Positions 13,664 to 64,000 of a DNA stretch of 64,000 nt are shown here, one piece after another. This DNA is from a virus (Duplodnaviria; Heunggongvirae; Uroviricota; Caudoviricetes). The position numbers were made by a program, and so were the translations under genes. The stretch spans positions 1-64,000 of the IMG/VR virus record IMGVR_UViG_3300047560_001287, one strand, 5' to 3'. Below the pieces are notes generated by a model. That model made no database searches, was not told where the DNA came from, and was given only the letters and a program-made list of their open reading frames with translations. Position 1 is the first letter of the stretch. Every line of letters begins with the position of its first letter.

Positions 13664-13693
13664 AAAATTATTTATTGCGGATAAATTACTATT

Positions 13694-15819: not shown

Positions 15820-15838
15820 ATCGTTAATCCGTAAATAG

Positions 15839-15867
15839 TTGACTTTATTGCGTAATTGTGATACACT
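15839..15867 (+). promoter_or_regulatory. sigma70-like promoter (TTGACT-17-TACACT) for uvdE
   Basis: Seen in divergent intergenic region 15820-15896. Confidence 0.4.
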
Positions 15868-15896
15868 ATATCTATTATTTATCATTCCATTATCTT

Positions 15897-25141: not shown

Positions 25142-25171
25142 TTGACAATAAACCCCATAGTGTGTCATAAT
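25142..25171 (+). promoter_or_regulatory. sigma70-like promoter TTGACAATAAACC...CATAAT (diverged cassette copy)
   Basis: -35 TTGACA, 18-bp spacer. Confidence 0.4.
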
Positions 25172-25187
25172 GCAATACAGACACACT

Positions 25188-32153: not shown

Positions 32154-32261
32154 ATGACAAATGATCCTATTATAAATTATATGTGTGCGGCAATTATCGC
32201 AGTTGGCTTTGGTTATGTTTTGTGGTTCCTACACAAATATTGCGTAATAAGAGATAAATGA
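32154..32261 (+). CDS. small membrane protein (35 aa)
   Basis: TAAGGAG RBS. Single TM. ATGA overlap into next gene. Confidence 0.3.
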   Translation: MTNDPIINYMCAAIIAVGFGYVLWFLHKYCVIRDK

Positions 32262-33031: not shown

Positions 33032-33034
33032 ACA

Positions 33035-33062
33035 TTGCTATTAGAATTAATACTGTTACAAT
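33035..33062 (+). promoter_or_regulatory. possible promoter TTGCTA-16-TACAAT
   Basis: In 58-bp gap before 33090. Confidence 0.3.
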
Positions 33063-33089
33063 TTATTAAATATACAGAGGGCTTAAACT

Positions 33090-33653
33090 ATGGTTACAAT
33101 CGTTAAACATGAATGGCATCAACATGATCGCCAATACGCTATTGAACTTGATGAAGCATTGTTGAGTGAGATTTATCCTGATTTGGATGAAGATGAAATT
33201 GCAACCATGCTTAAACAAATCGAAGATGGTGAAGTAGACTTTGAGGAAGTCATCAATGACGCATACGACAATGATGTTGACCTTGAGTGGGACTTTCAAT
33301 ATGATGATTGCTGGACTGACCGCAAGGGCGGTTATGATGTTACTTATGAGTTGGGTGATGAAGATAGTTGGGTAGAACCTGAAAAGGAACCAGAACCAAC
33401 ACATAAATGTACGAAGTGTCGTTGGCAGGGCGGTAAATATGAAACACTTACACAGTATTACCGAGAAGATGGTACAGTGATTGAAGATTATTACAGCAGT
33501 GACGAAGAATCTCACCATGACAAAGAAGTTTGTCCAATGTGTGACAGTGATGTTGAAATGACAGAACACGGCAAAGAAGAAAAAGCACGATATAACAAAT
33601 TGATGGCTGAGTTTGATGCTGAGTTAGAGGCGGCTGGCGAGGATGAGGATTAA
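33090..33653 (+). CDS. highly acidic protein with C-terminal zinc ribbon
   Basis: AGAGGG RBS. CTKCRW...CPMCDSD. Confidence 0.45.
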   Translation: MVTIVKHEWHQHDRQYAIELDEALLSEIYPDLDEDEIATMLKQIEDGEVDFEEVINDAYDNDVDLEWDFQYDDCWTDRKGGYDVTYELGDEDSWVEPEKEPEPTHKCTKCRWQGGKYETLTQYYREDGTVIEDYYSSDEESHHDKEVCPMCDSDVEMTEHGKEEKARYNKLMAEFDAELEAAGEDED

Positions 33654-34368
33654 TAAGTATACGTTAAGATTTTACTTTTTTGCAATTGCTAGTGTTATCG
33701 GATTACTGATGTATGACGGTACACTAGCAAAAGCCATTTCATATTTCATTTTCTTTTTATTCATAGGTAGATTATCGGGTTTAGGATACCATCGATGGTT
33801 ATCTCATAAACAACTAGAACCCAACATATTTGGTCGTATTGTATTATTGTGGTCCATGGTCTTTGTGGGAACAGCAAAGCCAGTTGATTATGTTGTGATG
33901 CATCGTTCACACCACAAATATTCTGACACAGACAAAGACCCCCATCCACGCTCTATCGGACTGTGGAGATTGCTAACATCGCAATATAATGAAATTTCAC
34001 TTACTGTACCCATCAAAGATATCATACGCAAACCAGATGTTATGTTTGTTAACAAATATTATTGGTTGTTATACTTTGTCAATCTAGGGATATTGTTTAT
34101 CATTGATTATCAAGTTGCGTTATTAAGTTTTGCATTGTTTAACTTGTCTGATATAGTATTTTCATCATTTTTTAATTACTATGCACATGACGATAATGGA
34201 CCTGTAAACATGCCACTATGGACTAACTATGCAATTTTTGCAGGTGAGAACTTACACTTAAATCATCACATTGATCCTAGTAATCCCAACTTTGGTTCTG
34301 CATCAAAATACAATATTGATTTGTTGTATTACTTTACTAAAGTATTTTTCAACCCGATTAGTAGATGA
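33643..34368 (+). CDS. membrane fatty-acid desaturase (delta-9 / DesC-like)
   Basis: Three histidine boxes: HRWLSH, HRSHHKYSDTDKDPH, HLNHH. Several TM helices. Confidence 0.75.
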   Translation: MRINKYTLRFYFFAIASVIGLLMYDGTLAKAISYFIFFLFIGRLSGLGYHRWLSHKQLEPNIFGRIVLLWSMVFVGTAKPVDYVVMHRSHHKYSDTDKDPHPRSIGLWRLLTSQYNEISLTVPIKDIIRKPDVMFVNKYYWLLYFVNLGILFIIDYQVALLSFALFNLSDIVFSSFFNYYAHDDNGPVNMPLWTNYAIFAGENLHLNHHIDPSNPNFGSASKYNIDLLYYFTKVFFNPISR

Positions 34369-35114
34369 TTTATATTGTTAACTACCAAGAAGGGTCACGT
34401 GGATCATTCATATCAGATTTATTGGGATTACTGCTCAATGACGATGCAACAGCTATTCTAGAAATTGATCCTATATATGGTACTGCTGGTCGAGTGTTTT
34501 TAGATATCACCGAAATTGCAAATGAAGAATATCCAAACAATTATTTAAAGTTACAATTTGATAACAATTTTGGATTAGTCTCGGGTGTTCCATTAGATTT
34601 GATCGGGTTTGAAAAATTTACAAATGTATATCCTGATTGGGAAGCACTATATATTGTATATGAACCAGAAGAAAAGTTAACAGTGGATGTGTTAAACATC
34701 TACAAAAACTTTTACAAAGACGAGCCAATCATTGCAAATTACTATTGGGCTTTTTATCTAAAAAATAAAAATATTTTAAGTAGAGAAATTGCTAATTTAA
34801 AAGAATTAGATTCCCAAGAACTAAAAAAGTTTATTGAATTATATTGGGAAACGGATAATGGAATTAACAAGTTCAATAAGAAATTTTCAGCAGACTATTG
34901 GGATAGTTTTGTAAGTTCAATCCCAGAACAATATCAAAACAGAATTCATAGAATAAATTTTTCAGATATAACAAACAACAAAGAAAAAATCTTAAATATA
35001 TTAAGTGAGATTACTGGTAAAACCATCACAGCAAATGTAGTTGCTAGTTATGACCGTTATTTGCAGTATCAAAATCTACCCAAAAAATTAATGGATATAA
35101 CATGCACGACTTAG
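34365..35114 (+). CDS. sulfotransferase-fold-like paralog B
   Basis: NYQEGSRGSFISDLL N-terminus. C-terminal FSDITNNKEKILNILSEITG...YDRYLQYQ. Confidence 0.5.
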   Translation: MIYIVNYQEGSRGSFISDLLGLLLNDDATAILEIDPIYGTAGRVFLDITEIANEEYPNNYLKLQFDNNFGLVSGVPLDLIGFEKFTNVYPDWEALYIVYEPEEKLTVDVLNIYKNFYKDEPIIANYYWAFYLKNKNILSREIANLKELDSQELKKFIELYWETDNGINKFNKKFSADYWDSFVSSIPEQYQNRIHRINFSDITNNKEKILNILSEITGKTITANVVASYDRYLQYQNLPKKLMDITCTT

Positions 35115-35311
35115 TAGGCAAATCATACACATTTGATGATGGCAGTAAAATTGAAATCATACAGATAAAACTCACAGATGAAAACCGAGGTAAGTTTCTC
35201 GTTACATATTTAATATCACAGGGTCCTAATTTACCTCGTAAATTGGTAATGGGCATAGATGAGTTTGTAAACTCGTTCGGGCATTTATTTGGAATCATAG
35301 AGAATGAGTAG
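35102..35311 (+). CDS. hypothetical protein (69 aa)
   Basis: ORF between paralogs. Confidence 0.3.
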   Translation: MHDLVGKSYTFDDGSKIEIIQIKLTDENRGKFLVTYLISQGPNLPRKLVMGIDEFVNSFGHLFGIIENE

Positions 35312-35957
35312 AGCCATTATTTTTCCAGGTGGTGCTGGTGGTAATCATTTGCGTTGGTTGTTGTACTTAGATAAGTCAATCGATAGCGATTTATCCATGG
35401 ATAAAAAAATAGATTTTGTATTGAATAAAATCTATTCAGATCAGCGTTCCTTTTATAATTGGTTGCCGTATGAAGCTACATGGAGATTTGATGATAAGTT
35501 TGAATCATTCATTAAAATACTACACGAACCTAAAGACGATAAACCCGAATATAAGTCAGTGTTCTTGTCATATGATGATTGGAATATCCCATTTGAACAC
35601 TATAGTTGCCTAACTTCTTGCTTTTCTTCTAAAAGAAGCTATGATCTATACTATAATTTTCTCAAAGATTTTGACCGCAAGGTTTCAAAACTCATTGTCA
35701 TTGATGAAAATAAATTAGTGATTAAATCAGATGTGTTTTTTAATGAGGTGTTAGACAAGCAATTTTATACACAAATAGTTGATTTTTTTGATTTTGAAAA
35801 TCATTATGATGAAGCCGCAATCTTACACAAGAAATGGTATGATACGAGAAATAGGGCTAAAAAAGAATTCTATGAGTTTTACAGCAGTAAATTCTGGCAA
35901 GATTTTATGGCCCGAATGCGTGGAGATGTACAGAGAAATAAGGGACTACTACCCTAA
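35304..35957 (+). CDS. sulfotransferase-fold-like paralog C (divergent)
   Basis: IIFPGGAGGNHLRWLL N-terminus. ATGA overlap. Confidence 0.45.
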   Translation: MSRAIIFPGGAGGNHLRWLLYLDKSIDSDLSMDKKIDFVLNKIYSDQRSFYNWLPYEATWRFDDKFESFIKILHEPKDDKPEYKSVFLSYDDWNIPFEHYSCLTSCFSSKRSYDLYYNFLKDFDRKVSKLIVIDENKLVIKSDVFFNEVLDKQFYTQIVDFFDFENHYDEAAILHKKWYDTRNRAKKEFYEFYSSKFWQDFMARMRGDVQRNKGLLP

Positions 35958-39234: not shown

Positions 39235-40437
39235 ATGTCACTTGAATCACTAAACCATTGCTCATTTTGCGGAAATCATAAAGATAAAGTTAAAAAACTT
39301 ATAGTAGGTGAGGACGTTGCTATTTGTAGCGACTGTATCGATTTATGCACACAATTAATCGAAGATGACGCTACCGTTGCCGATCCTGACCAAAAGAAAG
39401 AAGAAGTCAAGTATGACCCTATCGCTATCAAGGCGTACTTAGACCAGCATGTTATCGGACAAGATAGTGCTAAAACTGTATTGAGCGTTGCTATCGCTAA
39501 CCACTATAAGCGAATCACACACCCGCCCAAAGACTTAGAAATAGCTAAGGGTAATGTTCTTATTGTGGGGCCCACTGGTAGTGGTAAAACATTACTTGCT
39601 AAGACAGTTGCCAAGTATCTCAAGGTGCCCTTTGTCGTAGCAGACGCAACAAGTTTAACCGAAGCTGGTTATGTAGGTGATGACGTTGAATCAATGATTA
39701 GTATGCTAGTCAATGCCGCAGGTGGTGATGCTAAATTAGCAGAACGTGGAATTGTGTTTGTTGACGAGATTGACAAAATTGCACGTAAGGGCGAATCAAC
39801 TAGCGTTACCCGTGACGTGTCGGGTGAGGGCGTTCAGCAAGCATTACTCAAGTTAGTTGAGGGCACAGTCTGTCGTATTCCTGCAAGCGGTGGTCGCAAA
39901 CACCCAGGTGGTGAAATGCTAGAAATCAACACAAAGAATATTCTGTTCATTGCTGGTGGCGCATTCGTTGGATTGAAGGAAATCATCACAAATAGACAAC
40001 ATGGAACTAGTATTGGCTTTGGGGCAAATATCAGAGATAAGCGCAAAGAGGGTGAGTTAGCACAAGTAAGCCCCGACGACCTAACTAAATTTGGAATGAT
40101 TCCTGAATTTATCGGTAGATTCACGACTACTGTAAGTATTAAAGAACTGTCCAAAGACGAGTTAAAACATGTCCTGACCAATGTGAAAAACAACTACATT
40201 GAGCAATACAAGTACCTGTTCAGCATTGATGAAATTGAGTTGGAGTTTGCTGATGACGGACTTGGCCAGATTGTTGACAATTGCTTGAAACTGAAAACGG
40301 GTGCCCGTGGTCTACACACTGAAATCGAGAGGGTCCTAATGCCCCATATGTTCAATTTGCAGAAATATCGTGAAAGTAAAATCAAAAAGATAAATATTAA
40401 TCAGGAGCAAGTTTTAGAACCAAAAGCATTGATATGA
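39235..40437 (+). CDS. clpX: ATP-dependent Clp protease ATP-binding subunit ClpX
   Basis: Zinc-binding CSFCG...CSDC. Walker A GPTGSGKT. Pore-1 GYVG. ClpP-docking IGFGA loop. Sensor GARGL. Collinear with E. coli ClpX. Confidence 0.95.
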   Translation: MSLESLNHCSFCGNHKDKVKKLIVGEDVAICSDCIDLCTQLIEDDATVADPDQKKEEVKYDPIAIKAYLDQHVIGQDSAKTVLSVAIANHYKRITHPPKDLEIAKGNVLIVGPTGSGKTLLAKTVAKYLKVPFVVADATSLTEAGYVGDDVESMISMLVNAAGGDAKLAERGIVFVDEIDKIARKGESTSVTRDVSGEGVQQALLKLVEGTVCRIPASGGRKHPGGEMLEINTKNILFIAGGAFVGLKEIITNRQHGTSIGFGANIRDKRKEGELAQVSPDDLTKFGMIPEFIGRFTTTVSIKELSKDELKHVLTNVKNNYIEQYKYLFSIDEIELEFADDGLGQIVDNCLKLKTGARGLHTEIERVLMPHMFNLQKYRESKIKKININQEQVLEPKALI

Positions 40438-40655
40438 GTATAAAGGGTAGACGAGTAATAGTACAAGACGGGAATGTTGAAAAAGCATTACGCAAATTCA
40501 AAAAGAAGATTACTGAACAAGGATTGATTCAGGAAGTCCGCGACCGTCAAGAATTCGTCAAACCCACTGTCAAGCGAAAACTTGCTAAAGGACAAGCCAA
40601 GCGTAGATGGCAAAAATACTTGCGTGACCAGAGCTTGCCCAAGAAACTATATTGA
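40434..40655 (+). CDS. rpsU: 30S ribosomal protein S21
   Basis: ALRKFKKKITEQGLIQEVRDRQEFVKPTVKRKLAKGQAKRR matches bS21. ATGA overlap with clpX. Confidence 0.85.
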   Translation: MSIKGRRVIVQDGNVEKALRKFKKKITEQGLIQEVRDRQEFVKPTVKRKLAKGQAKRRWQKYLRDQSLPKKLY

Positions 40656-40762
40656 CCTAAATATTAGATTTTTTTGCGTATTTTTTATAAAATAAATACG
40701 TATTCAGATGCCGATGGTCGGGTCTGAAACATGTCATACTTGCTTATTAAAGGAGAAAACAA

Positions 40763-41200
40763 ATGACAAAAACACTATCCCTTCGTTCCCTCGACATTCC
40801 GTCAATTCACAAATTTGGTATCGGTTTCGATAACATGTTTGACGATTTGATGCGATTAAACAGTCAACAATCACTAAACTATCCCCCATACAACATCGTC
40901 AAAAATACCGAAGACTCCTTCGATATTGAGATTGCTGTATCTGGCTTCAGTGAAGGTGAAGTTGAGGTCAATCTTGACAACCGAGTATTGACTGTTAAGG
41001 GTCAGAAGAAGGAAGACTTGGTAGCCGAATACCTACACAAGGGTATTAGCACACGTGATTTCGTGCGTGAGTTTACGCTAGCAGAGCACGTTGAAGTTAT
41101 CAATGCTTCACAAAAAGACGGCATTCTAACTATTCAACTAGAACGTGTTGTTCCAGAAGAAAAGAAGCCAAAAGCAATTGCTATTAATTACACTAAATAA
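40763..41200 (+). CDS. ibpA: small heat-shock protein (Hsp20/IbpA family)
   Basis: GGAGAAAACAA RBS. Alpha-crystallin domain: PPYNIVK..FDIEIAVSGF..EVEV..LTVKG, GISTRDFVREF, ILTIQL. Confidence 0.85.
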   Translation: MTKTLSLRSLDIPSIHKFGIGFDNMFDDLMRLNSQQSLNYPPYNIVKNTEDSFDIEIAVSGFSEGEVEVNLDNRVLTVKGQKKEDLVAEYLHKGISTRDFVREFTLAEHVEVINASQKDGILTIQLERVVPEEKKPKAIAINYTK

Positions 41201-41210
41201 TATAATAGCT

Positions 41211-41239
41211 GTGAGTAGTCGTTAGGCTACTCACTTTTT
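41211..41239 (+). terminator. rho-independent terminator after ibpA
   Basis: GTGAGTAGTC-GTTA-GGCTACTCAC stem then TTTTTC. Confidence 0.6.
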
Positions 41240-41264
41240 CAACTATTAGATAAGTGATATTAAA

Positions 41265-41576
41265 ATGTCTAAAACGCAAACAGAAACAAAAATCAAAATT
41301 AAACCCAATCTAGCGTTACAAGAACCACCGTTGTACAAAATCATTTATATGAATGACGATGTGACTAGTATGGAATTTGTAGTGGGTAGCTTAATCGATT
41401 ATTTCAACTACACCGAAGACACAGCCTCGAATATCACTGTAAATATTCACGAGCAGGGTTCTGCGGTCGTTGCAGTACTACCATACGAAATTGCCGAACA
41501 AAAGGGAATTGAAGTTACGTTAGATGCACGTAGCCAGGGATATCCGTTACAAGTCAAAATCGAAGCAGAAGGTTAA
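41265..41576 (+). CDS. clpS: ATP-dependent Clp protease adaptor ClpS
   Basis: PPLYKIIYMNDDVTSMEFVVGSL...VNIHEQGSAVVAV matches ClpS core. Confidence 0.8.
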   Translation: MSKTQTETKIKIKPNLALQEPPLYKIIYMNDDVTSMEFVVGSLIDYFNYTEDTASNITVNIHEQGSAVVAVLPYEIAEQKGIEVTLDARSQGYPLQVKIEAEG

Positions 41577-42265
41577 ACTTCTATTCGTTTCGCCCAATAA
41601 GGCTTTCTTCCAAAATAAGAGTTATTGATATAGTTGATACCGTTGATATGTGTATCAACTATTTTTCTATACGTCCCGTAAACCCAATGTGTTACTTTCT
41701 TTTCAGTATCAACTGGTAACACCATGTCTAGGGAAAGTTGAGTTACTGTTGTTTCAGGCTCTTCACCGAAATACAGAACTGGACCTGGAACACTATTAGA
41801 AACTAGGATAACGCTTTTTACGTCCAAGTGTTTCTGTAATCTTTCTAGTGTTGATTTGAGGTAAGATAAATCCTCATGTCTTGCGTTTTCAATTGCTTGT
41901 TCAGAATCAAAATCTGTAGGTACTGTATTTCCGTACCAGCCGTTTGCCCCTGCAATTGCTATACCATCTATGATTACAACGTGATGGTGTAGATACGCTG
42001 TATTCTTTACTCCTCTACATATCTTCTGTAATTCACTAGTTCTTTTATCTATGTCAATTACATTATTATATTCCAGAGATCCAGAGATATAAAATACCCC
42101 TTGATAAAATTTTGACAAATGAAGTAGGGTTTGTCTAATCGTTCTTAATTCGTCACTAATGTTTCCTGCAATTATGCAGTATAGACTAGTAGCTTTACCC
42201 TCCCAATTGAAACTATCCTCAGGGGATAGATTCAAATCGCTGATTACATCAAACCCTATTTTCAT
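41573..42265 (-). CDS. hypothetical protein (230 aa); possibly degenerate metallophosphoesterase fold
   Basis: ISDLNL / AGNISDE / ISGSLEYN loosely echo calcineurin-like motifs but metal ligands are not conserved. Confidence 0.3.
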   Translation of the reverse strand: MKIGFDVISDLNLSPEDSFNWEGKATSLYCIIAGNISDELRTIRQTLLHLSKFYQGVFYISGSLEYNNVIDIDKRTSELQKICRGVKNTAYLHHHVVIIDGIAIAGANGWYGNTVPTDFDSEQAIENARHEDLSYLKSTLERLQKHLDVKSVILVSNSVPGPVLYFGEEPETTVTQLSLDMVLPVDTEKKVTHWVYGTYRKIVDTHINGINYINNSYFGRKPYWAKRIEV

Positions 42266-42585
42266 TACTTTGCGACGGTCATTTTTGGCTTTTTAGGCGC
42301 CTTTGGTTTTGCTGTCTTTTCTGCTTTTGGCTTAGCAGGTGCTTTAGCTTTCTTTGGCTTAGCTGTCATTGCGGCCGCAGGTGCTTTAGTAGCGTTTGGA
42401 TTATCTGCGTGTACAGCCCATTCTTCTGGGGTCAACTTGTGTAGACCTACACAGTTTCCTGTCTGACTGCGACCACACCCACATTTAGCAGGACCAGCTT
42501 GAACCGGCGTTTCTACTTTATATGGTGCTTCAGGTGCAGTTTCAGATGTACCGAAACCAAACAACTTCTTTAGATAGTTTAACAT
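42265..42585 (-). CDS. small Cys-cluster protein with AKPK-repeat basic tail
   Basis: CGCGRSQTGNCVGLH then KPKKAKAPAKPKAEKTAKPKAPKKPK. Confidence 0.45.
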   Translation of the reverse strand: MLNYLKKLFGFGTSETAPEAPYKVETPVQAGPAKCGCGRSQTGNCVGLHKLTPEEWAVHADNPNATKAPAAAMTAKPKKAKAPAKPKAEKTAKPKAPKKPKMTVAK

Positions 42586-42652
42586 GTTATTCTCCTTACA
42601 GTTTATTTATCTACTCATACATTACGTCACTTTAATCTTTAAATAAAATATT

Positions 42653-43144
42653 ATGCTCAGAAAAAACGTGCTTTTAGATTTGATGCAGGAAGAACCCCCT
42701 AGCATTAGTTATCAAAAACGCCTTGGATATCGAACTGATATCTATGAGGTCATATACCTATACCGACTGATAAACAAAGCTGTTTTCAAAAATGCACTAG
42801 AAATGCCAGAAATCGAGGTAGTTCCTAGATGTAGGAAATACTGGGGTATGTGCTATGCATCATGGGAAAGATTACCCGGTCGTAGAAGTTATTGCAAAAT
42901 ACGATTGATGGACAAGTGGTATTCGCATCATTGGTTAATATCAACATTAGCACATGAAATGTGCCACCAGTATCAGTGGGATATACAGGGTGCTCAAAGA
43001 CGTAGTAAGGGCAAAGAGCCTATTATGAGTCATGGTCCCAGTTTCTTTGTTTTCCGAGAAAAATTAAAGAAGCATGGCATTCCACTAAAAAGCGCACACA
43101 GTAAACGCAAATGGTTCAAGACACAAGATTTGTTTAAAACATAA
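42653..43144 (+). CDS. SprT-like zinc metallopeptidase domain protein
   Basis: LAHEMCHQY HExxH motif in SprT-like context. Confidence 0.55.
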   Translation: MLRKNVLLDLMQEEPPSISYQKRLGYRTDIYEVIYLYRLINKAVFKNALEMPEIEVVPRCRKYWGMCYASWERLPGRRSYCKIRLMDKWYSHHWLISTLAHEMCHQYQWDIQGAQRRSKGKEPIMSHGPSFFVFREKLKKHGIPLKSAHSKRKWFKTQDLFKT

Positions 43145-43163
43145 AATCGCATAAATACACATT

Positions 43164-44690
43164 ATGCGTGATATTTTAAACAACCTAGAACTATTAACAG
43201 AAAGTACCGGTTTAGCAGGACGTAAACCAGGTGACTTATTCCGTAACTCACACGGTGATGAAATTGTATTCCAGAGTATTCAATTTTTCCCCGAAGGTGG
43301 TGGCAAATATACGCCTGAACAATTAGACCAAGCAATTGCAGACGTTGAACAACAAGTAGGCGACATTGATTGGCAGAATCAAAAAACTGCACGAGCAGGT
43401 GGATTCGGTATAGCAACATTCACCGGCGCACAAGGTAATATGGTTATAGGTCGTTATTTGCAAGAAATTAATCCAAACATAAAGGATAATTACATTGCAA
43501 ATAAAGTAGGTGATTTCAAGTACGCAGGCAAAGCCGCAGAAAAAATTCAATCAGGTTTAAGCCCGCAAGATTTATTAGGTGATAGAATTGATTTAACTAT
43601 CGCTGATGTTATGAACCAATTAGCAATGAGCTTGGGTACTGATAACCCTCTATACGCTGTAGCACATAGATTAGCGACAGGTAGTCCATTACCAGTAACG
43701 TTCCCGACACCAGAAGGATATAGCTTTACTGCTTTCCGTGATTACTTCTGTGAAATTTTACAACCAATCGCATTACAAAAAGGTCAATACACAGGTAACG
43801 CAGGTGAAGCCGCTGAGAAATTTATGGGTGGTTCATTTGAGAACACATTAATTTCTTTTGACGAAAGCAAAACAGCAGGTTTAAGCGATAGTATATTGAC
43901 TAATGATAGCGGACAATTTATTAAAATTAGTACCAAAGGTGGCAAGGGTGCAACAGCTAGTGCTAAAAATTTGTTAGATACAATTGAAGAATTGAAACTA
44001 ACAAAAGAGGGCAAGAAACTGTTAAGCAAATACAAAGACGTTATTGATATGTTGCAACAAATCAAAGATGCAGGTCAAGCAGGATCACCTTTATTATTAG
44101 GTTTGCGTTATGGCATCATTGATGAGAAAGATGCAAAATCAATTGAAGAATTAAAAGGTGTGGGTCCAGTTAATTTAACACACATTGCTACTATGGGTCT
44201 AAGCAAGAACTTACAAAAACTTGCTAACCAGCGTGGTACAGATAACCCAGATAGTGTTAATTTATTCTATCACTTGATTGCCGCTGTAGCACACAAAGCC
44301 GCAGACGAAGTGAACAAGCATACAAACTTTAGTAAGGCAGCTGCCGAAATTTTAAACAACGGTGCGTTGGTACAAGTTTACACTTCGGCAAAAGAAAATA
44401 AAGATTCATGGACACTAGGTGAATTCGACACAGTTTACCCAGGTGACTCAATCAAAGGTGTTTACCTATCAGCAGGTAAAACATATTACAGTACAGGTAT
44501 CAAAGGAAACTTTACATTCAAAATTGATAAAGGTAAGGGAGTTCCGAAAGATGAAGATGAAGGTGAGAAGGGTGAAGCTACAAAATCAAGTGGCAGATCA
44601 ACTCGCCGTGGATTAGAAAAAGCCGCACAACAAATCACTAATCCACAAAATAAACCCACTGAACGTGGCATGCGTAGCACACGTAAATAA
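43164..44690 (+). CDS. hypothetical protein (508 aa), basic C-terminal tail
   Basis: Long ORF. Function unrecognised. Confidence 0.5.
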   Translation: MRDILNNLELLTESTGLAGRKPGDLFRNSHGDEIVFQSIQFFPEGGGKYTPEQLDQAIADVEQQVGDIDWQNQKTARAGGFGIATFTGAQGNMVIGRYLQEINPNIKDNYIANKVGDFKYAGKAAEKIQSGLSPQDLLGDRIDLTIADVMNQLAMSLGTDNPLYAVAHRLATGSPLPVTFPTPEGYSFTAFRDYFCEILQPIALQKGQYTGNAGEAAEKFMGGSFENTLISFDESKTAGLSDSILTNDSGQFIKISTKGGKGATASAKNLLDTIEELKLTKEGKKLLSKYKDVIDMLQQIKDAGQAGSPLLLGLRYGIIDEKDAKSIEELKGVGPVNLTHIATMGLSKNLQKLANQRGTDNPDSVNLFYHLIAAVAHKAADEVNKHTNFSKAAAEILNNGALVQVYTSAKENKDSWTLGEFDTVYPGDSIKGVYLSAGKTYYSTGIKGNFTFKIDKGKGVPKDEDEGEKGEATKSSGRSTRRGLEKAAQQITNPQNKPTERGMRSTRK

Positions 44691-44703
44691 TTAACCAAAT
44701 CTA

Positions 44704-44732
44704 TTGTAGTTATAAAAACTCTCTGTTATACT
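44704..44732 (+). promoter_or_regulatory. possible promoter TTGTAG-17-TATACT upstream of clpP
   Basis: In 68-bp gap. Followed by TAAGGAGAG RBS. Confidence 0.4.
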
Positions 44733-44758
44733 ATAGGTATCACTAATTAAGGAGAGTT

Positions 44759-45352
44759 ATGAGTTTAGTTCCAATCGTTGTTGAATCAACAAGTAAAGGC
44801 GAGCGTAGTTATGACATTTATAGTCGCCTTCTAAAAGACCGTGTCATTCTCCTAGAGGGTGAAGTTCATGACCACATGGCAAACTTAATTGTTGCCCAAC
44901 TATTGTTCTTGGAAAGTGAAGATGCGACAAAAGACATTTCTATGTACATTAACTCGCCCGGTGGTAGTGTTACCGCAGGCATGGCGATCTACGATTGTAT
45001 TCAGTTTATTAGTCCCGATGTACAGACGATTGTTATGGGTCAGGCATGTAGTATGGGTTCTCTCCTCGCACAAGCGGGAGCGCCAGGCAAAAGGTTTATG
45101 CTCCCCAATGCACGACACATGATTCATCAGCCATCGGGTGGTGCTCGTGGTATGCAAAGTGATATTGAAATCAGTTACAAGGAAATCACTTACTTGAAAA
45201 AGCGACTAACTGAAATCTATGTTAGCCACAATTCAAAGGGCAAAACATACGAGGACTTTGAACGTGACATGGATCGTGATAAGTTCATGTCAGCACAAGA
45301 GGCGTTAGAGTACGGATTGATTGATGAAATCGTAACAAAACGCAATGCTTAA
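44759..45352 (+). CDS. clpP: ATP-dependent Clp protease proteolytic subunit ClpP
   Basis: Ser-His-Asp triad contexts: [45 protein letters not shown]. Confidence 0.95.
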
Positions 45353-56109: not shown

Positions 56110-56203
56110 CCCAAATTGTTCTTTCTTCTTATTATTATTGTATAAATATTTAGCTGTTTTCGGTGAAAACAATCACGCAATATAATGGCCTACTAAATAT
56201 AAC

Positions 56204-56971
56204 ATGAACGACCTGTATATAGTCAGCTTTATTCCAGGAACGTCCGGTAGATTTGTTTCTAGTATCATTTGGAGTCTGATTAACAATCTTGACGTTAACA
56301 TTGAATACACTAAACACAATTCAGCACACACAACATCACATTGGGCTTTAAGTTGGGCCAATCAACCAGTTTTTACCACTGATGTTTATAAAAAAATTGA
56401 GTTTTCTGACAGCCCCAGCCCACTAAATCCATATGGTAACAAACTATTAAACACTCATGTGTTTCCTGATTGGGATACAATTCGTCAACGATTCCCGAAT
56501 GCCAAGATTGTTGTTTTGAGCTATACAGAAAATGATTTTTTAGAAATTACGGGAAATGCATTACTTAAGAATGGGTTTGACGGGCTAGAAAAAACACCAC
56601 CGCACGATACGCTTTATACTCGCTTTATACTCAATTGTCATAGGAAACTATACGGGCGTGAGTACGATTATACCAAAATTACTACCAACGAGATTCGAGA
56701 AATAAGTTTGGAATACTACATATACGAGAAACAATTCTTGCCAACCAGACCTTTTAGAAACCCAGTAATTCCACCTGATTTTGTTGACACTACACTAGTA
56801 CTGAGTTATAATGATTTGTTTACTATGGAATCTGAACAGTACAAAGGGTTGTCAAGTTTAGCCAATTTTACTGACACAATCGTTTCCGATAGTGTGCAAA
56901 AGATGTATGAAAAATACGTTGATGGTAGAGACAAATTAATCAAAGAAAAAATGCCTTGGATATTATTATGA
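56204..56971 (+). CDS. sulfotransferase-fold-like paralog D
   Basis: IVSFIPGTSGRFVSSII P-loop-like. NSAHTT. C-terminal YEKYVDGRDKLIKEKMPW. Confidence 0.5.
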   Translation: MNDLYIVSFIPGTSGRFVSSIIWSLINNLDVNIEYTKHNSAHTTSHWALSWANQPVFTTDVYKKIEFSDSPSPLNPYGNKLLNTHVFPDWDTIRQRFPNAKIVVLSYTENDFLEITGNALLKNGFDGLEKTPPHDTLYTRFILNCHRKLYGREYDYTKITTNEIREISLEYYIYEKQFLPTRPFRNPVIPPDFVDTTLVLSYNDLFTMESEQYKGLSSLANFTDTIVSDSVQKMYEKYVDGRDKLIKEKMPWILL

Positions 56972-57498
56972 ATACAAATAGAGAAAAAATGCCCCACTTA
57001 TATCTAGATATGGACGGAGTCCAAGCTGACTTATTCCATGCTATAGCAAAACGTGAAAATGTACCTCACTGGGACGATATACCGGATCAAAATGAAGCAA
57101 TCACTAGATTGAGTCTAAAAGGCCCGTACGAAGTTTATCAACTATTCCGTGAACTTGATCCATTGCCCGGTGGTCAAGAAATCATCAAATGGTTACATAA
57201 AAACAAGATTCCGTTTACTGTACTTAGTGCTCCTCTTAGGAACGAACCACAAGCTAGTATCGAAGCAAAACGTGATTGGTTAGACCAATATAATCCGGGC
57301 ACCAGCGAAAATGCTATCTTTACAAAGAGAAAATTTAGGTATGCAACGACTGATGGACGACCCAATGTTTTAGTTGATGACTTTAACTATTATCTACAAT
57401 CCTGGGCTGAAGCGGGTGGAATTGCAGTAAAACACAGTGATGCTACCACTGAATATACGATAAAACAGCTAAATAAGATATACGAAAGGTATTTATAA
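56968..57498 (+). CDS. HAD-family 5'(3')-deoxyribonucleotidase (NT5C-like)
   Basis: LYLDMDGVQADLFHA matches DxDG(V/T) HAD motif I of NT5C family. Confidence 0.6.
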   Translation: MNTNREKMPHLYLDMDGVQADLFHAIAKRENVPHWDDIPDQNEAITRLSLKGPYEVYQLFRELDPLPGGQEIIKWLHKNKIPFTVLSAPLRNEPQASIEAKRDWLDQYNPGTSENAIFTKRKFRYATTDGRPNVLVDDFNYYLQSWAEAGGIAVKHSDATTEYTIKQLNKIYERYL

Positions 57499-57499
57499 A

Positions 57500-58261
57500 A
57501 TGAACTATGTAGTTTCTTCCGCACCTGGCACATTTGGGCCCTCATTAGCAATGATTTTATTTAATCTAGCAAATGACTTTGAATATCCAACTGACATTTC
57601 AGTTAATAATCCATCCTACATTCTTGACTCCGGTGTTAATTCATATGATTCAGATGTATTCTCTCATCTGAGTTTTCCACCTAATGCAAATGGAGTATTT
57701 GCAACTAGAACGTTGGTGAACCTAGAAGAAGTAGCAACTAATAGCAATTTGACAAATACCAAGTTTGTGATTATTAAACTATCAGATGCTAATCGTGTAG
57801 AAATCACTAAAAATACTTATTGTAAAGTTATTGAACCTTTGTCAAAACAGTATTTTACACTATCCCAGCAGGAAAAGGACTTACTAAATCCGGAAGCTAT
57901 TGAAAAAATAGAATACACTTTTAACAAGGTCAAAGAAAAGTTTGATGTTACTGTTTCCGCAGAAAACGTGAATAGCACAGACGTTCAGCAAAAATTATTC
58001 GATGTGACAAATAATAAAAACAATGAATTATTATTAGTCAGATATTCCAAGAATGTTTCTATTCCAGCAGGTATGGAAGATAGAGTTTGTGTGATTAACT
58101 ACGATGATATCATCACGCCTTCAACGAACAATTCATACGTTGCATTGGATCAACTGGTTGAATTTACTGGTGGACAACTAAAACCTGAAATTTTACAAGT
58201 ATACACAGACTTAGTTGAAGAACACGAAACAATGCGTTCTACGGTGTATCCAGCACTATAA
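57500..58261 (+). CDS. sulfotransferase-fold-like paralog E
   Basis: VVSSAPGTFGPSLAMIL N-terminus. C-terminal YDDIITPSTNNSYVALDQLVEFTG. Confidence 0.5.
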   Translation: MNYVVSSAPGTFGPSLAMILFNLANDFEYPTDISVNNPSYILDSGVNSYDSDVFSHLSFPPNANGVFATRTLVNLEEVATNSNLTNTKFVIIKLSDANRVEITKNTYCKVIEPLSKQYFTLSQQEKDLLNPEAIEKIEYTFNKVKEKFDVTVSAENVNSTDVQQKLFDVTNNKNNELLLVRYSKNVSIPAGMEDRVCVINYDDIITPSTNNSYVALDQLVEFTGGQLKPEILQVYTDLVEEHETMRSTVYPAL

Positions 58262-58273
58262 AGTGAGGAAATA

Positions 58274-59047
58274 TTGTCAGTAACTTTTCCTAATACAGAT
58301 ACCTATCTGGTAAATTGGACTGGTGGTGCTAGCGGGGCATTTATTTTATCTTTGCTTTATAGTTTTCTATATAATAAAGTTAATGAAGAACATATATCAG
58401 ATAGCGGCAATGCACACGAAGTCGCATTTGAAATAGTTACTAATAATTGGAAAAATCCAGCATTTAGGCGTACCAACTTCAGATTAAATCAAATCAAAAT
58501 TTATGATGTTATAGATCCATTGGACGAAACAAAACCGTTGATTCTATACAATCATGTTCCACCCAATCTAGAAAAATTATTTGCAAAATATCCTAAATGC
58601 AAGCACATTAGAATATCAGTGTGTGATAAAATGTTACCTAGGATTCAAGGTAATTTGTTTTACAAAACAACTTATGAACACTACGATGTTAGCCAATTGC
58701 GCTGGGATCGAATGGTGTTCCAACACTCGTATTTAAATGGGTACACTCCACAAAATTGTCCACAAGAATTAATTAGACGTTACATCGAAGATACATGTAA
58801 GATTTGGCCCGCAATGGCATCTGATAATTATTACACTGAATATTACGAAATTCCATCAGAGTTCCGTGATAGAGTAATCACAGTACCATACTATGACATA
58901 ATTTATAAACGTGACAAAATCTTAGATTTGCTATCTACATTAACAGAAAAACCAATACGACAAGATATTGTTGATTTTTATGATATTTATTTGGCAAAAC
59001 AAAAATGGTTGATGCAAGAAAAGATGCCATGGATCAACGACCAATAA
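58274..59047 (+). CDS. sulfotransferase-fold-like paralog F (TTG start)
   Basis: GTGAGGA RBS before TTG. WTGGASGAFILSLL. GNAHEV. YYDIIYKRDKILDLLSTLTE...YLAKQKWLMQEKMPW. Confidence 0.5.
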   Translation: MSVTFPNTDTYLVNWTGGASGAFILSLLYSFLYNKVNEEHISDSGNAHEVAFEIVTNNWKNPAFRRTNFRLNQIKIYDVIDPLDETKPLILYNHVPPNLEKLFAKYPKCKHIRISVCDKMLPRIQGNLFYKTTYEHYDVSQLRWDRMVFQHSYLNGYTPQNCPQELIRRYIEDTCKIWPAMASDNYYTEYYEIPSEFRDRVITVPYYDIIYKRDKILDLLSTLTEKPIRQDIVDFYDIYLAKQKWLMQEKMPWINDQ

Positions 59048-59802
59048 GTTTCCCCGACACACCTACATATGCAATTACATGGATGGGAGGTTCATGTGGG
59101 GCATTCATTACGTCACTTGTATATCAATTTGTAGAGGTTTCAGTAAACAAGTACAAATTTTCTCAGTATGGGAACGCACATGATGTTGCCCTCAAACAGT
59201 GTGAGAAAAATTGGACTAGCATCAGTGACAAACGTTATGAAGATAACGAACCAATTTATAAAACTATTAATCCATTGTTTAAAAATAGACCATTAATATT
59301 GTTTGGTCATTTGATACCTGATTTTGATGGTTTATTTTACAAGTACCCTCTCTGCAAGCAAATAATAGTGACAGTAGATGAAAACATGGTTCAGAGGATG
59401 AATGGAAACTTCTTCTTTAAAACTATATGTGACACGTTTCCTGGATCAGACATACAATGGAAAAACATTAAAAACACACATCAGTACCTACAAGAATATG
59501 CAGACCCAAGAATATTACCTGTTGATGTTGCACAAGAATACATTATAAACTGTAGCCATAGCTGGCCGTTACAGGGCGCAGAATTCTTTACTGATGATTT
59601 TTCGATTCCAGACAAATATGTTGATAATGTTACTAAAATCAAAATGCATGATTTGATACACGACCCTGATAAAGTTTTGCAAACACTGAGTTCTGTGACT
59701 GGTTCTGAAATCAGACCTGATATTGTAGAATACTACCAAAATTATTTGGATAAACAATCAGAGCTTGTAAAAACAAAAATGCCCTGGTTAGACGATAAAT
59801 AA
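59029..59802 (+). CDS. sulfotransferase-fold-like paralog G
   Basis: WMGGSCGAFITSLV. GNAHDV. MHDLIHDPDKVLQTLSSVTG...YLDKQSELVKTKMPW. Start is uncertain (59005 or 59029). Confidence 0.5.
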   Translation: MDQRPISFPDTPTYAITWMGGSCGAFITSLVYQFVEVSVNKYKFSQYGNAHDVALKQCEKNWTSISDKRYEDNEPIYKTINPLFKNRPLILFGHLIPDFDGLFYKYPLCKQIIVTVDENMVQRMNGNFFFKTICDTFPGSDIQWKNIKNTHQYLQEYADPRILPVDVAQEYIINCSHSWPLQGAEFFTDDFSIPDKYVDNVTKIKMHDLIHDPDKVLQTLSSVTGSEIRPDIVEYYQNYLDKQSELVKTKMPWLDDK

Positions 59803-59850: not shown

Positions 59851-60036
59851 ATGGCTAACCCCGGACAACACTACACACGTTATGAAGTAATCACACAGGA
59901 AGATCCTGAAACCGGTGATTTAATTGTTCCGATTCCACAAGTATTACTTGACCAACTAGGATGGGTTGAAGGGGACACGATTGATTTTAGTCTCGATGAA
60001 AATGGTCACTACATTATTAGAAAGTTAAACAAATGA
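59851..60036 (+). CDS. small SpoVT/AbrB-like (looped-hinge helix) domain protein
   Basis: LIVPIPQVLLDQLGWVEGDTIDF resembles AbrB/MazE swapped-hairpin motif. Confidence 0.4.
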   Translation: MANPGQHYTRYEVITQEDPETGDLIVPIPQVLLDQLGWVEGDTIDFSLDENGHYIIRKLNK

Positions 60037-60464
60037 ACGATGACATTTCCATAGACACAATCACACTAAATTTAAGTGAAGAAGATGATATGGCATATAT
60101 TATAAATTCACCCACGAGCACATCAGCGGCATCATGGGTTAGTACAGCAGGGACAAGTAGTGTTTGGTTAACAGCTAACAGTGCTGGTTCTGCTTCATGG
60201 GTTGATTCTATATCTGGTTCAACAGTAATAGACAGCAAAGCCCTCACAGTTAAGGGGGACGCAGAATTTGAAGGTGATGTTAAGATACAAGGCAAAAGCC
60301 TTTCCGACACATTAGAGAATATTGAAAAACGTTTGGCTATTCTTCACCCAAACAAAGAACTAGAAGAAAAATGGGAACGTCTAAAGTCTTTGGGTGACAT
60401 GTACCGTGAACTTGAAGCTGAAATTATCGAAAAAGAACAAATCTGGGCTACCCTAAAAAAGTAA
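60033..60464 (+). CDS. hypothetical protein, Ser/Thr-rich N-terminus and C-terminal coiled coil (143 aa)
   Basis: ATGA overlap. Confidence 0.45.
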   Translation: MNDDISIDTITLNLSEEDDMAYIINSPTSTSAASWVSTAGTSSVWLTANSAGSASWVDSISGSTVIDSKALTVKGDAEFEGDVKIQGKSLSDTLENIEKRLAILHPNKELEEKWERLKSLGDMYRELEAEIIEKEQIWATLKK

Positions 60465-61206: not shown

Positions 61207-61422
61207 ATGGCAAAAGAAGAAGGCATTAAGATGGATGGCAAAGTAGTTGAAGTGTTACCCAACGCCACCTTCAGAGTAACACTAAATGCAGGTCAAACTG
61301 TAATGGGTTATATCTCAGGAAAAATGCGTCAACATGATATTAAAATTCTATTAGGTGACACAGTAGAAGTCGAATTTAGTCCATACGACCTGACAAAAGG
61401 ACGAATTGTAAGGCGTAGATAA
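61207..61422 (+). CDS. infA: translation initiation factor IF-1
   Basis: [60 protein letters not shown] is collinear with bacterial InfA S1-like fold. Confidence 0.85.
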
Positions 61423-62046
61423 ATGCAATTCTGTAATGGATTGCTAGGACACGACCCTAGTGAATATTTCAATACTAGCGGTCATAGGTGTAAAGAACTA
61501 AAAGATGTAGACTTACACAAATACATTTTATTTGTGGGTGACAACGTGGGTGTAGATTTATCTAAACCAGTTGAAGAAACCTACCCTTATTTAATCAGTC
61601 AACGTTTAAAGATGGATTATTATAATCTATGCGTCTTTAACGGTGGGCTGGATGCCATCAAGTTTAACTTGATATCTTGGTTTCAACTAGTCCCCCAGAA
61701 ACCCAAAATGATAATCGTCAGTACAGAGTTTTTAAACTCTATCATAACATCCGATCATAATCATTCGTTTTTTACCCCTGCTGATTATAACAATCAGGTG
61801 ACAAAAGATTTCACTGATGCAGGAAACTTCAATGGATTTTTCACTACACGGAAGCTACTATTTGAAAAGTTAATTAGCAATTTAATCAATATACCTATCT
61901 ACCAAATAGAGTTCAAAGATAAATTACCCGCGTTCACTACAAACGTGATTAACATCAAGTACGACGGGGGCATGTTTGACCATCATTCAATTTCAAAAGA
62001 AGTAATAAACAAAATAAATGAATTAACAGTGAGGATCAAACCATGA
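61423..62046 (+). CDS. SGNH/GDSL-hydrolase-like paralog 1 (nucleophile Ser apparently replaced: GDN)
   Basis: YILFVGDNVG (block I-like), DHHS near C-terminus. Paralogous to next gene: GHRCKELKDVDL / TYPYLISQ / DYYNL. Confidence 0.45.
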   Translation: MQFCNGLLGHDPSEYFNTSGHRCKELKDVDLHKYILFVGDNVGVDLSKPVEETYPYLISQRLKMDYYNLCVFNGGLDAIKFNLISWFQLVPQKPKMIIVSTEFLNSIITSDHNHSFFTPADYNNQVTKDFTDAGNFNGFFTTRKLLFEKLISNLINIPIYQIEFKDKLPAFTTNVINIKYDGGMFDHHSISKEVINKINELTVRIKP

Positions 62047-62780
62047 AATTTTATGAAGATTTCCTAGGAGAAGATTTCGCCAATATTCAAATGATGTTTG
62101 CAGGTGAGGATAGTGAAGAACAGTTTGAAAAAAACAAAAAATCACAGCCACCGGATTGGTATTATATTAACAAACCAATTGAATATGCTTATAACAGCTA
62201 CGGTCATAGGTCAAAAGATTTGCAGGATATAGATTTAGACAATTATGTATTATTCACTGGATGTAGTCATACATCTGGTGTTGGAATAGAATTAGAAAAA
62301 ACATACCCTTACTTAGTAAGTCAGCAATTAAATTGTGATTATTACAATTTAGCAATGCCCGCTACGGGTATAGATGTACTAGAATATAACTTATTAACCT
62401 GGTTCGCTAAAGTAAAAAAGAAACCTAAAATTGTATTCATACAATGGCCCGATTGCAGTAGATATATAACATACAATGATGAATTTAAACACGGTATAAC
62501 TAGCGGGTCTTGGGAAAAAGATCCAGATAAAATGAAATTTATTGCAAGCGGCGATTTATCCGGATTTTTTAATGCTCGGGTAAAATTTACAGTTGATTTA
62601 ATACGTACTGTAGTAGAATCACAAACTAGACTTATAACATGTAATATCAGCGGGCAAGTCCCATACGATATGGAAAATTTTACAATGCGAACGATAGATA
62701 AAGCGAGAGATTTGAGTCATGCAGGAATCAATTCCAATTCTACTTTTGCAAAAGCAATCTTAGAACGACTACAGCAATAA
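62043..62780 (+). CDS. SGNH/GDSL-hydrolase-like paralog 2
   Basis: VLFTGCSHTSG (GxSxT block I-like). DLSHAG (DxxH block V). ATGA overlap. Confidence 0.5.
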   Translation: MKFYEDFLGEDFANIQMMFAGEDSEEQFEKNKKSQPPDWYYINKPIEYAYNSYGHRSKDLQDIDLDNYVLFTGCSHTSGVGIELEKTYPYLVSQQLNCDYYNLAMPATGIDVLEYNLLTWFAKVKKKPKIVFIQWPDCSRYITYNDEFKHGITSGSWEKDPDKMKFIASGDLSGFFNARVKFTVDLIRTVVESQTRLITCNISGQVPYDMENFTMRTIDKARDLSHAGINSNSTFAKAILERLQQ

Positions 62781-63172: not shown

Positions 63173-63180
63173 ATTAAATT

Positions 63181-64000
63181 ATGGCAATTTCTGGGCAAGA
63201 ATTAATTAGAATTGGCTTACCAAACGAATCCGCAAACAGTGATTCGTTGTATGTAGCATTTGCTAAGACAAAAAACAACTTTTCAACGCTTTTCAGCACA
63301 GCCAGTCCATTCGTTACATTTACTGGTAATACTGGTATTTCAACATCATCAAATGCTGTAGCGGGAACAGTTGATATAACAAACACCGGTGTAACTAGCA
63401 TCATAGCTGGTACTGGTATCATTGTTGACCAAGCTAACGGAAACGTTACAATTTCAAGTACAGGTGGTGGTAATGGTAGCGGTGGCACAGTTACTAGTGT
63501 AGGCGTGTTATCAGGTACATTAACAGTATCTGGATCTCCTATTGTTAGTGCAGGGAATATAACACTCAACTTACCAGCAATTGCTAACGTACAGGGTTCA
63601 TATTCATACCCAAGCATCACTGTTGATGGATATGGTAGAATCACTAATATTGCAAATGGTGCAACATTAGGTACAGTCACTAGCGTGGGCGTGACTACTA
63701 GTGGCCCTGGACTACAGATTTCAGGAAGCCCTATCACTGGCAACGGTAATATTAATATTATTAACACTGGTGTTACTAGATTGAATGCTGGATCTGGTAT
63801 CAGTTTAAGTTCAAGTAACGGTAACATCACTGTTTCTACAGTTACGTTAGGTGGAACCGTAACTAGTATCGGAATATCTAGTTCAACATTAAACGTCACA
63901 AATAGCCCAATCACAACAACTGGTACAATCAGTGTTGAAATCCCAACAAACCCAACGTTGCCTGGCAACGTTACAATAGGTAATTTAACTGTTACTGGTA
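63181..64000 (+). CDS. tail fibre protein, 5' part (continues beyond window)
   Basis: Open + frame with no stop to the window end. Repeated GTVTSVGV...SGSPI...GNI modules and ITVDGYGRIT typical of phage fibres. The - strand ORF 63174-63968 is its antisense artefact. Confidence 0.7.
   Translation, partial: MAISGQELIRIGLPNESANSDSLYVAFAKTKNNFSTLFSTASPFVTFTGNTGISTSSNAVAGTVDITNTGVTSIIAGTGIIVDQANGNVTISSTGGGNGSGGTVTSVGVLSGTLTVSGSPIVSAGNITLNLPAIANVQGSYSYPSITVDGYGRITNIANGATLGTVTSVGVTTSGPGLQISGSPITGNGNINIINTGVTRLNAGSGISLSSSNGNITVSTVTLGGTVTSIGISSSTLNVTNSPITTTGTISVEIPTNPTLPGNVTIGNLTVTG

Follow-up and report, generated by a model that had tools for sequence, protein, structure and literature searches.

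Tandem genes of an uncultured tailed phage encode an unnamed, divergent protein family with a predicted sulfotransferase fold

A 64,000-nucleotide stretch of a tailed virus of the class Caudoviricetes (IMG/VR record IMGVR_UViG_3300047560_001287, positions 1 to 64,000; here called the window) carries four similar genes between positions 56204 and 59802, designated D, E, F and G, with a gene for an NT5C-like nucleotidase embedded among them. What kind of protein these genes encode, and what a phage would gain from several versions of it side by side, are the questions raised by this locus. A first-pass annotation made from the sequence alone described the genes as paralogs with a sulfotransferase-like fold, and proposed either group transfer onto host-surface or virion glycans or a role in the modification of nucleotides or DNA. 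The best explanation of the results presented below is that the proteins form a divergent, unnamed branch of the fold of sulfotransferases that use 3'-phosphoadenosine 5'-phosphosulfate (PAPS). Positions are those of the whole 64,000-nucleotide stretch, and open reading frames (ORFs) were taken from a six-frame list, which matches the coordinates given in the annotation for all five genes.

Paralogy, fold and spread of the family

Paralogs D (56204-56971, 255 aa), E (57500-58261, 253 aa), F (58274-59047, 257 aa) and G (59005-59802, 265 aa) are all encoded on the plus strand. In blastp comparisons of the four proteins with all ORFs of the window, F and G share 38% identity over 256 aa (E-value 3e-62), and D matches G, F and E with E-values of 2.6e-14, 1e-12 and 2e-6, respectively. 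A family hidden Markov model (HMM) scores all four at E-values from 1e-34 to 1e-89 (D 7.5e-70, E 5.8e-34, F 1.7e-82, G 8e-89). The similarity is far beyond chance, and the four proteins are true paralogs, as had been claimed. The motifs quoted in support of that claim are present in D, F and G (D, for example, carries GTSGRF, NSAH, THVFP, N..LK and KMPW), whereas three features are missing from E, namely the (G/N)(S/N)AH motif, the other conserved histidine and the KMPW end. A DNA repeat search revealed no recent duplication in the paralog region, the only repeats among the paralogs being the codons of the shared KMPW motif, and in a neighbour-joining tree F and G are no closer to one another than either is to the copies of other phages. 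This makes the duplication an old one.

The assignment of a fold relies on structural models. The AlphaFold2 model of G, built from a 14-sequence alignment, has a mean predicted local distance difference test score (pLDDT) of 88.8 and a predicted template modelling score (pTM) of 0.88, and it displays the alpha/beta architecture of sulfotransferases, with a parallel sheet, a loop after strand 1 and a C-terminal helical layer. When this model was compared with the PDB by Foldseek, the top hits were all sulfotransferases (SULT1E1 with an E-value of 1.8e-4, and also LGS1, SULT2A1, StaL and Teg12), at modest TM-scores of 0.37-0.45. A search of a viral structure library returned uncharacterised "uncultured Caudovirales" proteins and cyanophage sulfotransferases with TM-scores of 0.36-0.52. 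In two fold searches sulfotransferases ranked above every kinase and with more aligned residues: about 105-135 residues align with P-loop kinases (gluconate kinase 1knq, adenosine 5'-phosphosulfate (APS) kinase, Kti12 6qp0, PSTK) compared to 152-187 with sulfotransferases, and the C-terminal helices of the family match sulfotransferases instead. The Walker A motif GxxxxGK[ST] is absent, the loop consensus being G-[STA]-[SCG]-G-x-F with no lysine, and a P-loop kinase identity was rejected for lack of the Walker A lysine. The segment that had been noticed as P-loop-like appears instead to be the structural equivalent of the loop that binds the 5'-phosphosulfate, so that this earlier observation also holds.

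Profile comparisons lend weak support to the same fold. The family profile matched the sequences of the CurM sulfotransferase (E-value 0.0017) and SULT1C2 (E-value 0.22) among PDB entries, in both cases through a shared C-terminal motif, I.Y.D(I/L)...vL..L..F.G. In an alignment of 133 diverse family members, 8 weakly matched Pfam Sulfotransfer_1 and 2 Sulfotransfer_3, with a best E-value of about 1e-4. With a small profile built from SULT1A1, SULT1E1 and SULT2A1, hhalign gave an alignment of 182 columns with an E-value of 3.6e-4; of the three sequences, that of SULT1A1 was confirmed to be identical to PDB 1z28. Against the SULT1A1 sequence by itself, the C-terminal motif alone was aligned. Taken with the models, these results let us predict a sulfotransferase fold for the family with confidence, in agreement with the original guess. 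Phage proteins annotated as sulfotransferases, exemplified by A0A6M2ZHD0 of Synechococcus phage S-SCSM1, and the "uncultured Caudovirales" proteins in BFVD have the same predicted fold (Foldseek E-values of 1e-6 to 2e-4), but their identity to the paralogs is just 11-16%; because of this, and because tblastn with D and G found no match in 50,697 phage records, they are not considered members of the same family.

The family has no model of its own in the resources searched. No such model was matched by the window paralogs tested in Pfam (D-G), NCBIfam (D-G and the two further members at 32258 and 34365 described below), PHROGs or PADLOC, and there was no match to known anti-defence proteins. 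Megablast of the 4-kb region against the same 50,697 phage records was likewise negative. A word-indexed search of 5.8 billion proteins yielded 8-17 proteins per query, while an exhaustive profile search of 1.84 billion cluster representatives identified 607 clusters (at 50% identity) with E ≤ 1e-3, of which 363 reach E ≤ 1e-10. Almost all members found by the profile search are single-domain proteins of about 250 aa. Every member that was looked up is a metagenomic protein without a name (JGI, ENA, Logan); some lie on contigs of 92-332 kb, and the contigs are mostly phage-like, so far restricting the family to viruses. When 185,579 species genomes of bacteria and archaea were scanned with type II patterns (the subtypes are defined below), no relative was detected, a negative that covers absence from cells only in part; viral contigs searched with the type I alignment yielded nothing. 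One family member lies on a 5.4-kb contig binned as a giant-virus metagenome-assembled genome (L003/L017, IMG/VR GVMAG-M-3300009164-20), though the contig may come from a phage and have been placed in the wrong bin; otherwise the family may not be confined to phages. Two rare fused forms were seen: P0015 (586 aa) has two type II copies in one chain, and P0038 (701 aa) has a type I copy, a stretch of "WPN"-type repeats and a second, partial copy.

The source phage itself has no cultured relative: its DNA ligase is at most 35% identical to any phage record, and two other proteins of the window had no tblastn match. The literature searched on phage and anti-defence sulfotransferases and on phages with IF1, S21 and ClpP contained nothing on the family or the lineage. 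The contig names of some relatives suggest freshwater projects, and we therefore refrain from calling the lineage marine.

The putative active site and two subtypes

Residues are numbered on G starting at position 59035. In the 133-member alignment the near-invariant residues are G19, G22, H49, H92, N125, K129, L215, Y234 and Y237. In PAPS sulfotransferases, Lys48 steadies the sulfuryl group during transfer, Arg130, Ser138 and the RKG motif bind the 3'-phosphate of PAPS, and His108 is the catalytic base. We placed the family on this framework by hhalign and by the start of modelled helix 1 at residue 22. H92, in an HxxP context in 121 of 130 members, pairs with His108 ("THLP") in hhalign and, independently, in HMMER; E and the 34365 copy have lost it. 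F24 pairs with Trp53, and the YxD of the last strand with Tyr193-Glu-Asp. The family thus shares with PAPS sulfotransferases (PF00685, PF13469; Anopheles AGAP001425 7r0o, human SULT1B1 2z5f, SULT1E1 1hy3, StaL 2ov8, CurM sulfotransferase 4gbm) a phosphate-binding loop after strand 1, the HxxP histidine, aromatic residues at the positions of the adenine-stacking Trp53 and Tyr193 and the C-terminal YxD(I/L)...L..L..F(T/L)G. It differs from them in having glycine for Lys48 and invariants of its own (H49, N125, K129, Y234, Y237 and the PW end).

These similarities and differences lead us to propose a general model in which the family members are non-canonical nucleotide-dependent group transferases, probably of a new kind, and we give this model about an even chance of being right. 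An adenine-nucleotide donor would be bound at the Gly-rich loop, and H92, helped by H49, would act as the general base that activates a hydroxyl or amine of the acceptor. N125 and K129, joined in type I proteins by Arg23, would stand in for Lys48, Arg130 and Ser138. The transferred group would most likely be sulfate from PAPS, possibly from APS, sulfate being the default guess from the fold. PAPS specifically as the donor is a tentative suggestion, and we lean against it; because the 3'-phosphate ligands are missing, APS or another donor is left open.

Several observations weigh against this model. The residue mapping comes from a weak profile alignment and a secondary-structure register rather than from inspected coordinates. 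In that mapping, by both hhalign and the helix-start register, G19 falls at the position of Lys48, and the loop has no family-wide basic residue: type I proteins have an arginine at the Thr52 position and type II proteins have none, so that the pattern (K/R)xG(T/S)(T/S) is not found. The Arg130 position is occupied by V114, a variable hydrophobic residue (V/Y/I). The Ser138 position is variable with no conserved counterpart, and the 3'-phosphate motif is accordingly missing; N125 and K129 come 2 and 6 residues after this position on the helix that bears Ser138 in sulfotransferases. The RKGxxGDWK motif (GxxGxxK) would fall beyond the end of the alignment, where the family ends in a helix of the form Y..Y...Q..L....PW. 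Lys48, Arg130, Ser138 and RKGxxGDWK are nearly universal among PAPS enzymes. None of the window paralogs tested reaches a sulfotransferase threshold in Pfam or NCBIfam, and adjacent to the locus there is neither a sulfate-activation gene nor an acceptor pathway. As far as the alignments indicate, the predicted catalytic base and adenine pocket are kept, and the canonical ligands of the phosphosulfate and the 3'-phosphate are not. Lacking three defining motifs, the family should not be filed as a canonical PAPS sulfotransferase; the fold fits the earlier idea of sulfation, but sulfation cannot simply be assumed when the canonical PAPS-binding residues are not conserved.

Best-hit classification and a neighbour-joining tree split the family into two old subtypes. 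Type I (47 of the aligned proteins) includes D, the 32258 copy and the relatives L005_1, L007, L008_1 and L009_1, while type II (84 proteins) includes F, G and most other relatives. The Gly-rich loop reads G-x-S-G-R-F in type I (with the arginine in 43 of 47) and G-x-[SCG]-G-[ASN]-F, with no basic residue, in type II. The first histidine motif is NSAH in type I and GNAH in type II, the residue before H92 is T or S in type I and D or E in type II (53 of 84), and position 121 is Glu in type I and Arg in type II. Type I proteins are further marked by K-N at 129-130 and G-R at 240-241, and type II proteins by Gln241. H49, H92, N125, K129 and Y237 are kept in both.

Paralog E and the 34365 copy belong to neither type, and each has lost the two conserved histidines. 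E retains the Gly-rich loop, the asparagine and the lysine; the KMPW end has been lost along with the histidines, and the fold is retained in its model (pLDDT 87, pTM 0.84), with strands and helices in the same order as in G and only loop residues 32-49 disordered, where other paralogs carry GxAH. Losses of the two histidines co-occur across the alignment (4 double losses, p = 0.002 by Fisher's exact test), which suggests that the two residues act together. To judge from the missing residues, E has probably lost catalysis. The same probably applies to the 34365 copy, and both proteins may serve as binding partners instead. Conservation in the family is concentrated in residues 11-30, 41-50, 91-130 and 191-250, and residues at about 51-80 and 131-190 are variable and rich in insertions and deletions. 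By analogy, we infer that these two variable segments are the acceptor-binding parts, and each paralog would therefore serve its own acceptor.

Organization and conservation of the locus

The leftward gene upstream of D encodes a 260-aa protein and starts at an ATG at 56109, as do its homologs at the equivalent site. It is separated from D by a short divergent intergenic region (56110-56203), after which the rightward string of genes begins; a scan of this region for promoters and terminators gave no signal above shuffled expectation. The five genes from D to G are co-directional and tightly joined. The stop codon of D and the start of the nucleotidase gene (56968-57498, plus strand, with a longer alternative start at 56956) overlap as ATGA, a gap of 1 nt separates the nucleotidase gene from E, and a spacer of 12 nt lies between E and F. 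F begins with TTG, preceded at 6 nt by GAGGA, bearing out the earlier remark on a TTG start with a good ribosome-binding site, and its ortholog on contig L010 is likewise called with 257 aa, at the corresponding place. The overlap between F and G is 19-43 nt long, according to which ATG starts G, an alternative one being at 59029. All paralog reading frames are intact.

The embedded gene was described previously as an NT5C-like deoxynucleotidase between D and E, and this description is well founded: the protein scores 31.4 bits against Pfam PF06941 (cut-off 24.8; E-value 2.2e-7), matches phrog_2643 (E-value 2.5e-21) and contains DMDGV, the DxDx(V/T) motif I of the haloacid dehalogenase (HAD) superfamily. 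The profile match and motif I (DxDxV) are shared with NT5C 5'(3')-deoxyribonucleotidases and mark the protein as a putative enzyme of this kind. An NT5C-like gene stands beside family members in six distinct loci (the window, L002, L005, L007, L013 and L014), a repeated pairing that, to our knowledge, is not a described association. Enzymes of the 5'(3')-nucleotidase family are known to accept both 3'- and 5'-phosphates. It is possible that the enzyme clears a nucleotide by-product of the transfer reaction, such as 3'-phosphoadenosine 5'-phosphate (PAP), but it may equally be an unrelated gene of the nucleotide pool.

Six other contigs are syntenic with the window. The conserved order upstream is ferredoxin, dCMP deaminase, an S11 peptidase (leftward), DUF4337 (leftward) and the leftward 260-aa gene; downstream, the conserved genes are those for a 61-aa MazE-like protein, a 130-143-aa protein, IF-1, DUF6473-like proteins, an Fe-S protein and large fibre-like proteins. 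Related phages carry from one to four copies of the family at the fixed site in between. The window and an identical Logan contig (L006) have type I, NT5C, E, type II and type II, in this order; L005 has type I, NT5C and type II; L007 has type I and NT5C; L008 and L009 each have type I and type II; and L001 has two type II copies separated by a 135-aa gene. Among more distant loci, L002, L013 and L014 have NT5C followed by type II, and L004 has just one copy, of type II, within a replication module. D has an orthologous position in L005 and L007. The commonest arrangement is type I followed by type II, a pairing that is not known to have been reported before and that was absent from the literature searched. 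Next after the family locus there are always the genes at 59851-60464, which encode the 61-aa MazE/AbrB-like protein (phrog_661) and a protein of 135-143 aa; the latter protein has a conserved C-terminal coiled segment, VKGDA.FEG.V.I.GK...LAILHPN, and in L001 (9575-9982) its gene lies between the two family copies.

Selection was assessed with contig L010, on which F and G have orthologs, as has the end of E. By the Nei–Gojobori method, dN/dS is 0.11 for E (118 codons), 0.06 for F (88% amino acid identity) and 0.11 for G, compared with 0.03 for the neighbouring IF-1 gene and 0.19 for the neighbouring 143-aa gene; dS is about 1.0-1.2, near saturation, so that the ratios are approximate. E, F and G are thus kept by purifying selection, E included in spite of its missing histidines, and on average they are not under diversifying selection. 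The tandem array had been read as the product of an arms race, and the variation in copy number from one to four agrees with that reading, but the low ratios and the age of the lineages do not indicate recent diversifying duplicates. The pseudogenised copies that the annotation had named as grounds for abandoning its proposal were not found among these orthologs.

The four paralogs are not the only representatives of the family in the window, and the label "Cluster 2" in the annotation had already implied three others. The total is six clear members and one partial, the additional three also having been picked up by blastp with the four paralogs. The fifth, of type I and lying in what would be cluster 1 of the annotation, is at 32258-33031 (plus strand; blastp to D with an E-value of 1.5e-15, HMM E-value 6.7e-45), and the sixth is the degenerate copy without both histidines at 34365-35114 (plus strand; HMM E-value 4e-38), which starts directly after a gene for a fatty-acid-desaturase-like membrane protein at 33643-34368 (Pfam FA_desaturase, 1.1e-8) situated between the two members. 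The partial relative (26439-27065, plus strand, 208 aa) resembles the family over its C-terminal 56 or so residues only (hhalign probability 95.6%, E-value 1e-8; HMM E-value 4.7e-11); it comes directly after a gene for a predicted lipoprotein of 421 aa (25170-26435), which has no family match. The ORF at 35304-35957 is a doubtful member, with 18 N-terminal residues aligned at 41% probability. This second group of family members, spanning 32258-35957, has the lowest GC content of the window (0.31-0.35).

Several other genes of the window deserve mention. ClpX, ribosomal protein S21, Hsp20, ClpS, ClpP and IF-1 (39235-45352 and 61207-61422) all score above Pfam thresholds and represent an unusual host-like set for proteostasis and translation. 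Two adjacent paralogs at 61423-62046 and 62043-62780 match DUF6473 weakly (E-values 7e-4 and 2e-3) and are conserved in L001, L005, L008 and L009, but lack a match in cultured phages. In the region 12368-16931, two leftward genes, one for a radical-SAM protein and one for an Fe/Mn superoxide dismutase, are accompanied by genes for a UvdE UV-endonuclease and a GP88-like protein. In relatives the dismutase gene adjoins the block of IF-1 and Fe-S genes instead, and it has therefore moved. A repetitive fibre-like ORF with GTVTSVG repeats (63178-64000, plus strand) runs off the window and has a 367-aa homolog in L001; the long minus-strand ORF at 63174-63968 is its shadow. No tRNA genes were found in the window.

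Possible functions and their meaning

The functions proposed initially can be weighed against this evidence. Under the first, the proteins would be canonical PAPS sulfotransferases that modify host-surface or virion glycans in an arms race over receptors. The fold and the variable copy number are compatible with such a role, and the window does contain glycan genes (397-2357 and 9495-11671), namely a cytidylyltransferase-like domain fused to a cupin of the mannose-6-phosphate-isomerase type, two GT4-type glycosyltransferases and an NAD-dependent epimerase, which could supply acceptors for the family. These genes are about 45 kb away, however, the equivalents of Lys48, Arg130 and Ser138 are not conserved, and the orthologs evolve under purifying selection. 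The locus had also been placed just upstream of a tail-fibre region. A fibre-like ORF does exist downstream, but eight unrelated genes, over about 3.4 kb, lie in between and the ORF hit no PHROG, and the closeness of the paralogs to host-recognition genes is loose. On balance we consider canonical glycan sulfation quite unlikely. The second proposal would have the paralogs phosphorylate or otherwise derivatise a nucleotide or base in concert with the NT5C-like nucleotidase and the nearby dCMP deaminase. What speaks for it is the recurrence of the nucleotidase in six loci, but about half of the loci do without it, the dCMP deaminase belongs to a separate block set apart by leftward genes, the GxxxxGK[ST] lysine is wanting, and sulfotransferases outrank kinases over more residues in both fold searches. 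Nothing links the family to DNA modification, and we see little probability in this alternative.

Two further explanations dispense with catalysis. The proteins might be nucleotide binders, perhaps sponges for host signalling nucleotides or binders of another kind in counter-defence, or a structural or regulatory family that merely keeps the fold. The family is so far found only in viruses, in multiple copies and in a variable accessory locus, and two of its members in the window lack both histidines, of which E, the one tested, is under purifying selection. Yet the near-invariant histidines, asparagine, lysine and tyrosine across 133 members resemble an active site, and neither PADLOC nor known anti-defence proteins provided a match, which makes a non-catalytic role for the whole family very unlikely in our estimation. 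Decay is the other explanation: E is highly diverged and without motifs, as expected of degenerating or selfish duplicates with no function. Intact frames, dN/dS values of 0.06-0.11 at a dS of about 1, confident models of G and E and the same organization on independent contigs contradict it, and we regard it as almost certainly wrong; a pseudogene reading was rejected on the dN/dS of E, F and G.

The preferred model, a non-canonical nucleotide-dependent group transferase, can be carried further. It is conceivable, if improbable, that the family is a phage-specific class of the sulfotransferase fold with a non-canonical donor (APS or another adenine-nucleotide-linked compound) that works as an obligate pair of type I and type II proteins, with the HAD nucleotidase disposing of the by-product. 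In such a pair, type I, with its loop arginine, would be the catalytic subunit, and type II a specificity or regulatory subunit. If this were true, the chemistry would be new for the fold and would be used by phages on a host or viral molecule.

Nothing here yet overturns current understanding, and should the proteins prove to be ordinary PAPS sulfotransferases whose motifs are unusual, a useful annotation will have been gained but no surprise. The pairing of type I with type II, the recurrent nucleotidase neighbour and the presence of one to four copies at a single position offer handles for experiments. If the model of non-canonical group transfer is right, phages hold a sizeable unnamed branch of the sulfotransferase fold, with 607 clusters and none of them in Pfam, PHROGs or NCBIfam, in which the cofactor site has been rebuilt. 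Defining its donor and acceptor would add an enzyme family to the biology of phage auxiliary metabolism or host modification, and would allow hundreds of "hypothetical proteins" from aquatic viromes to be named.

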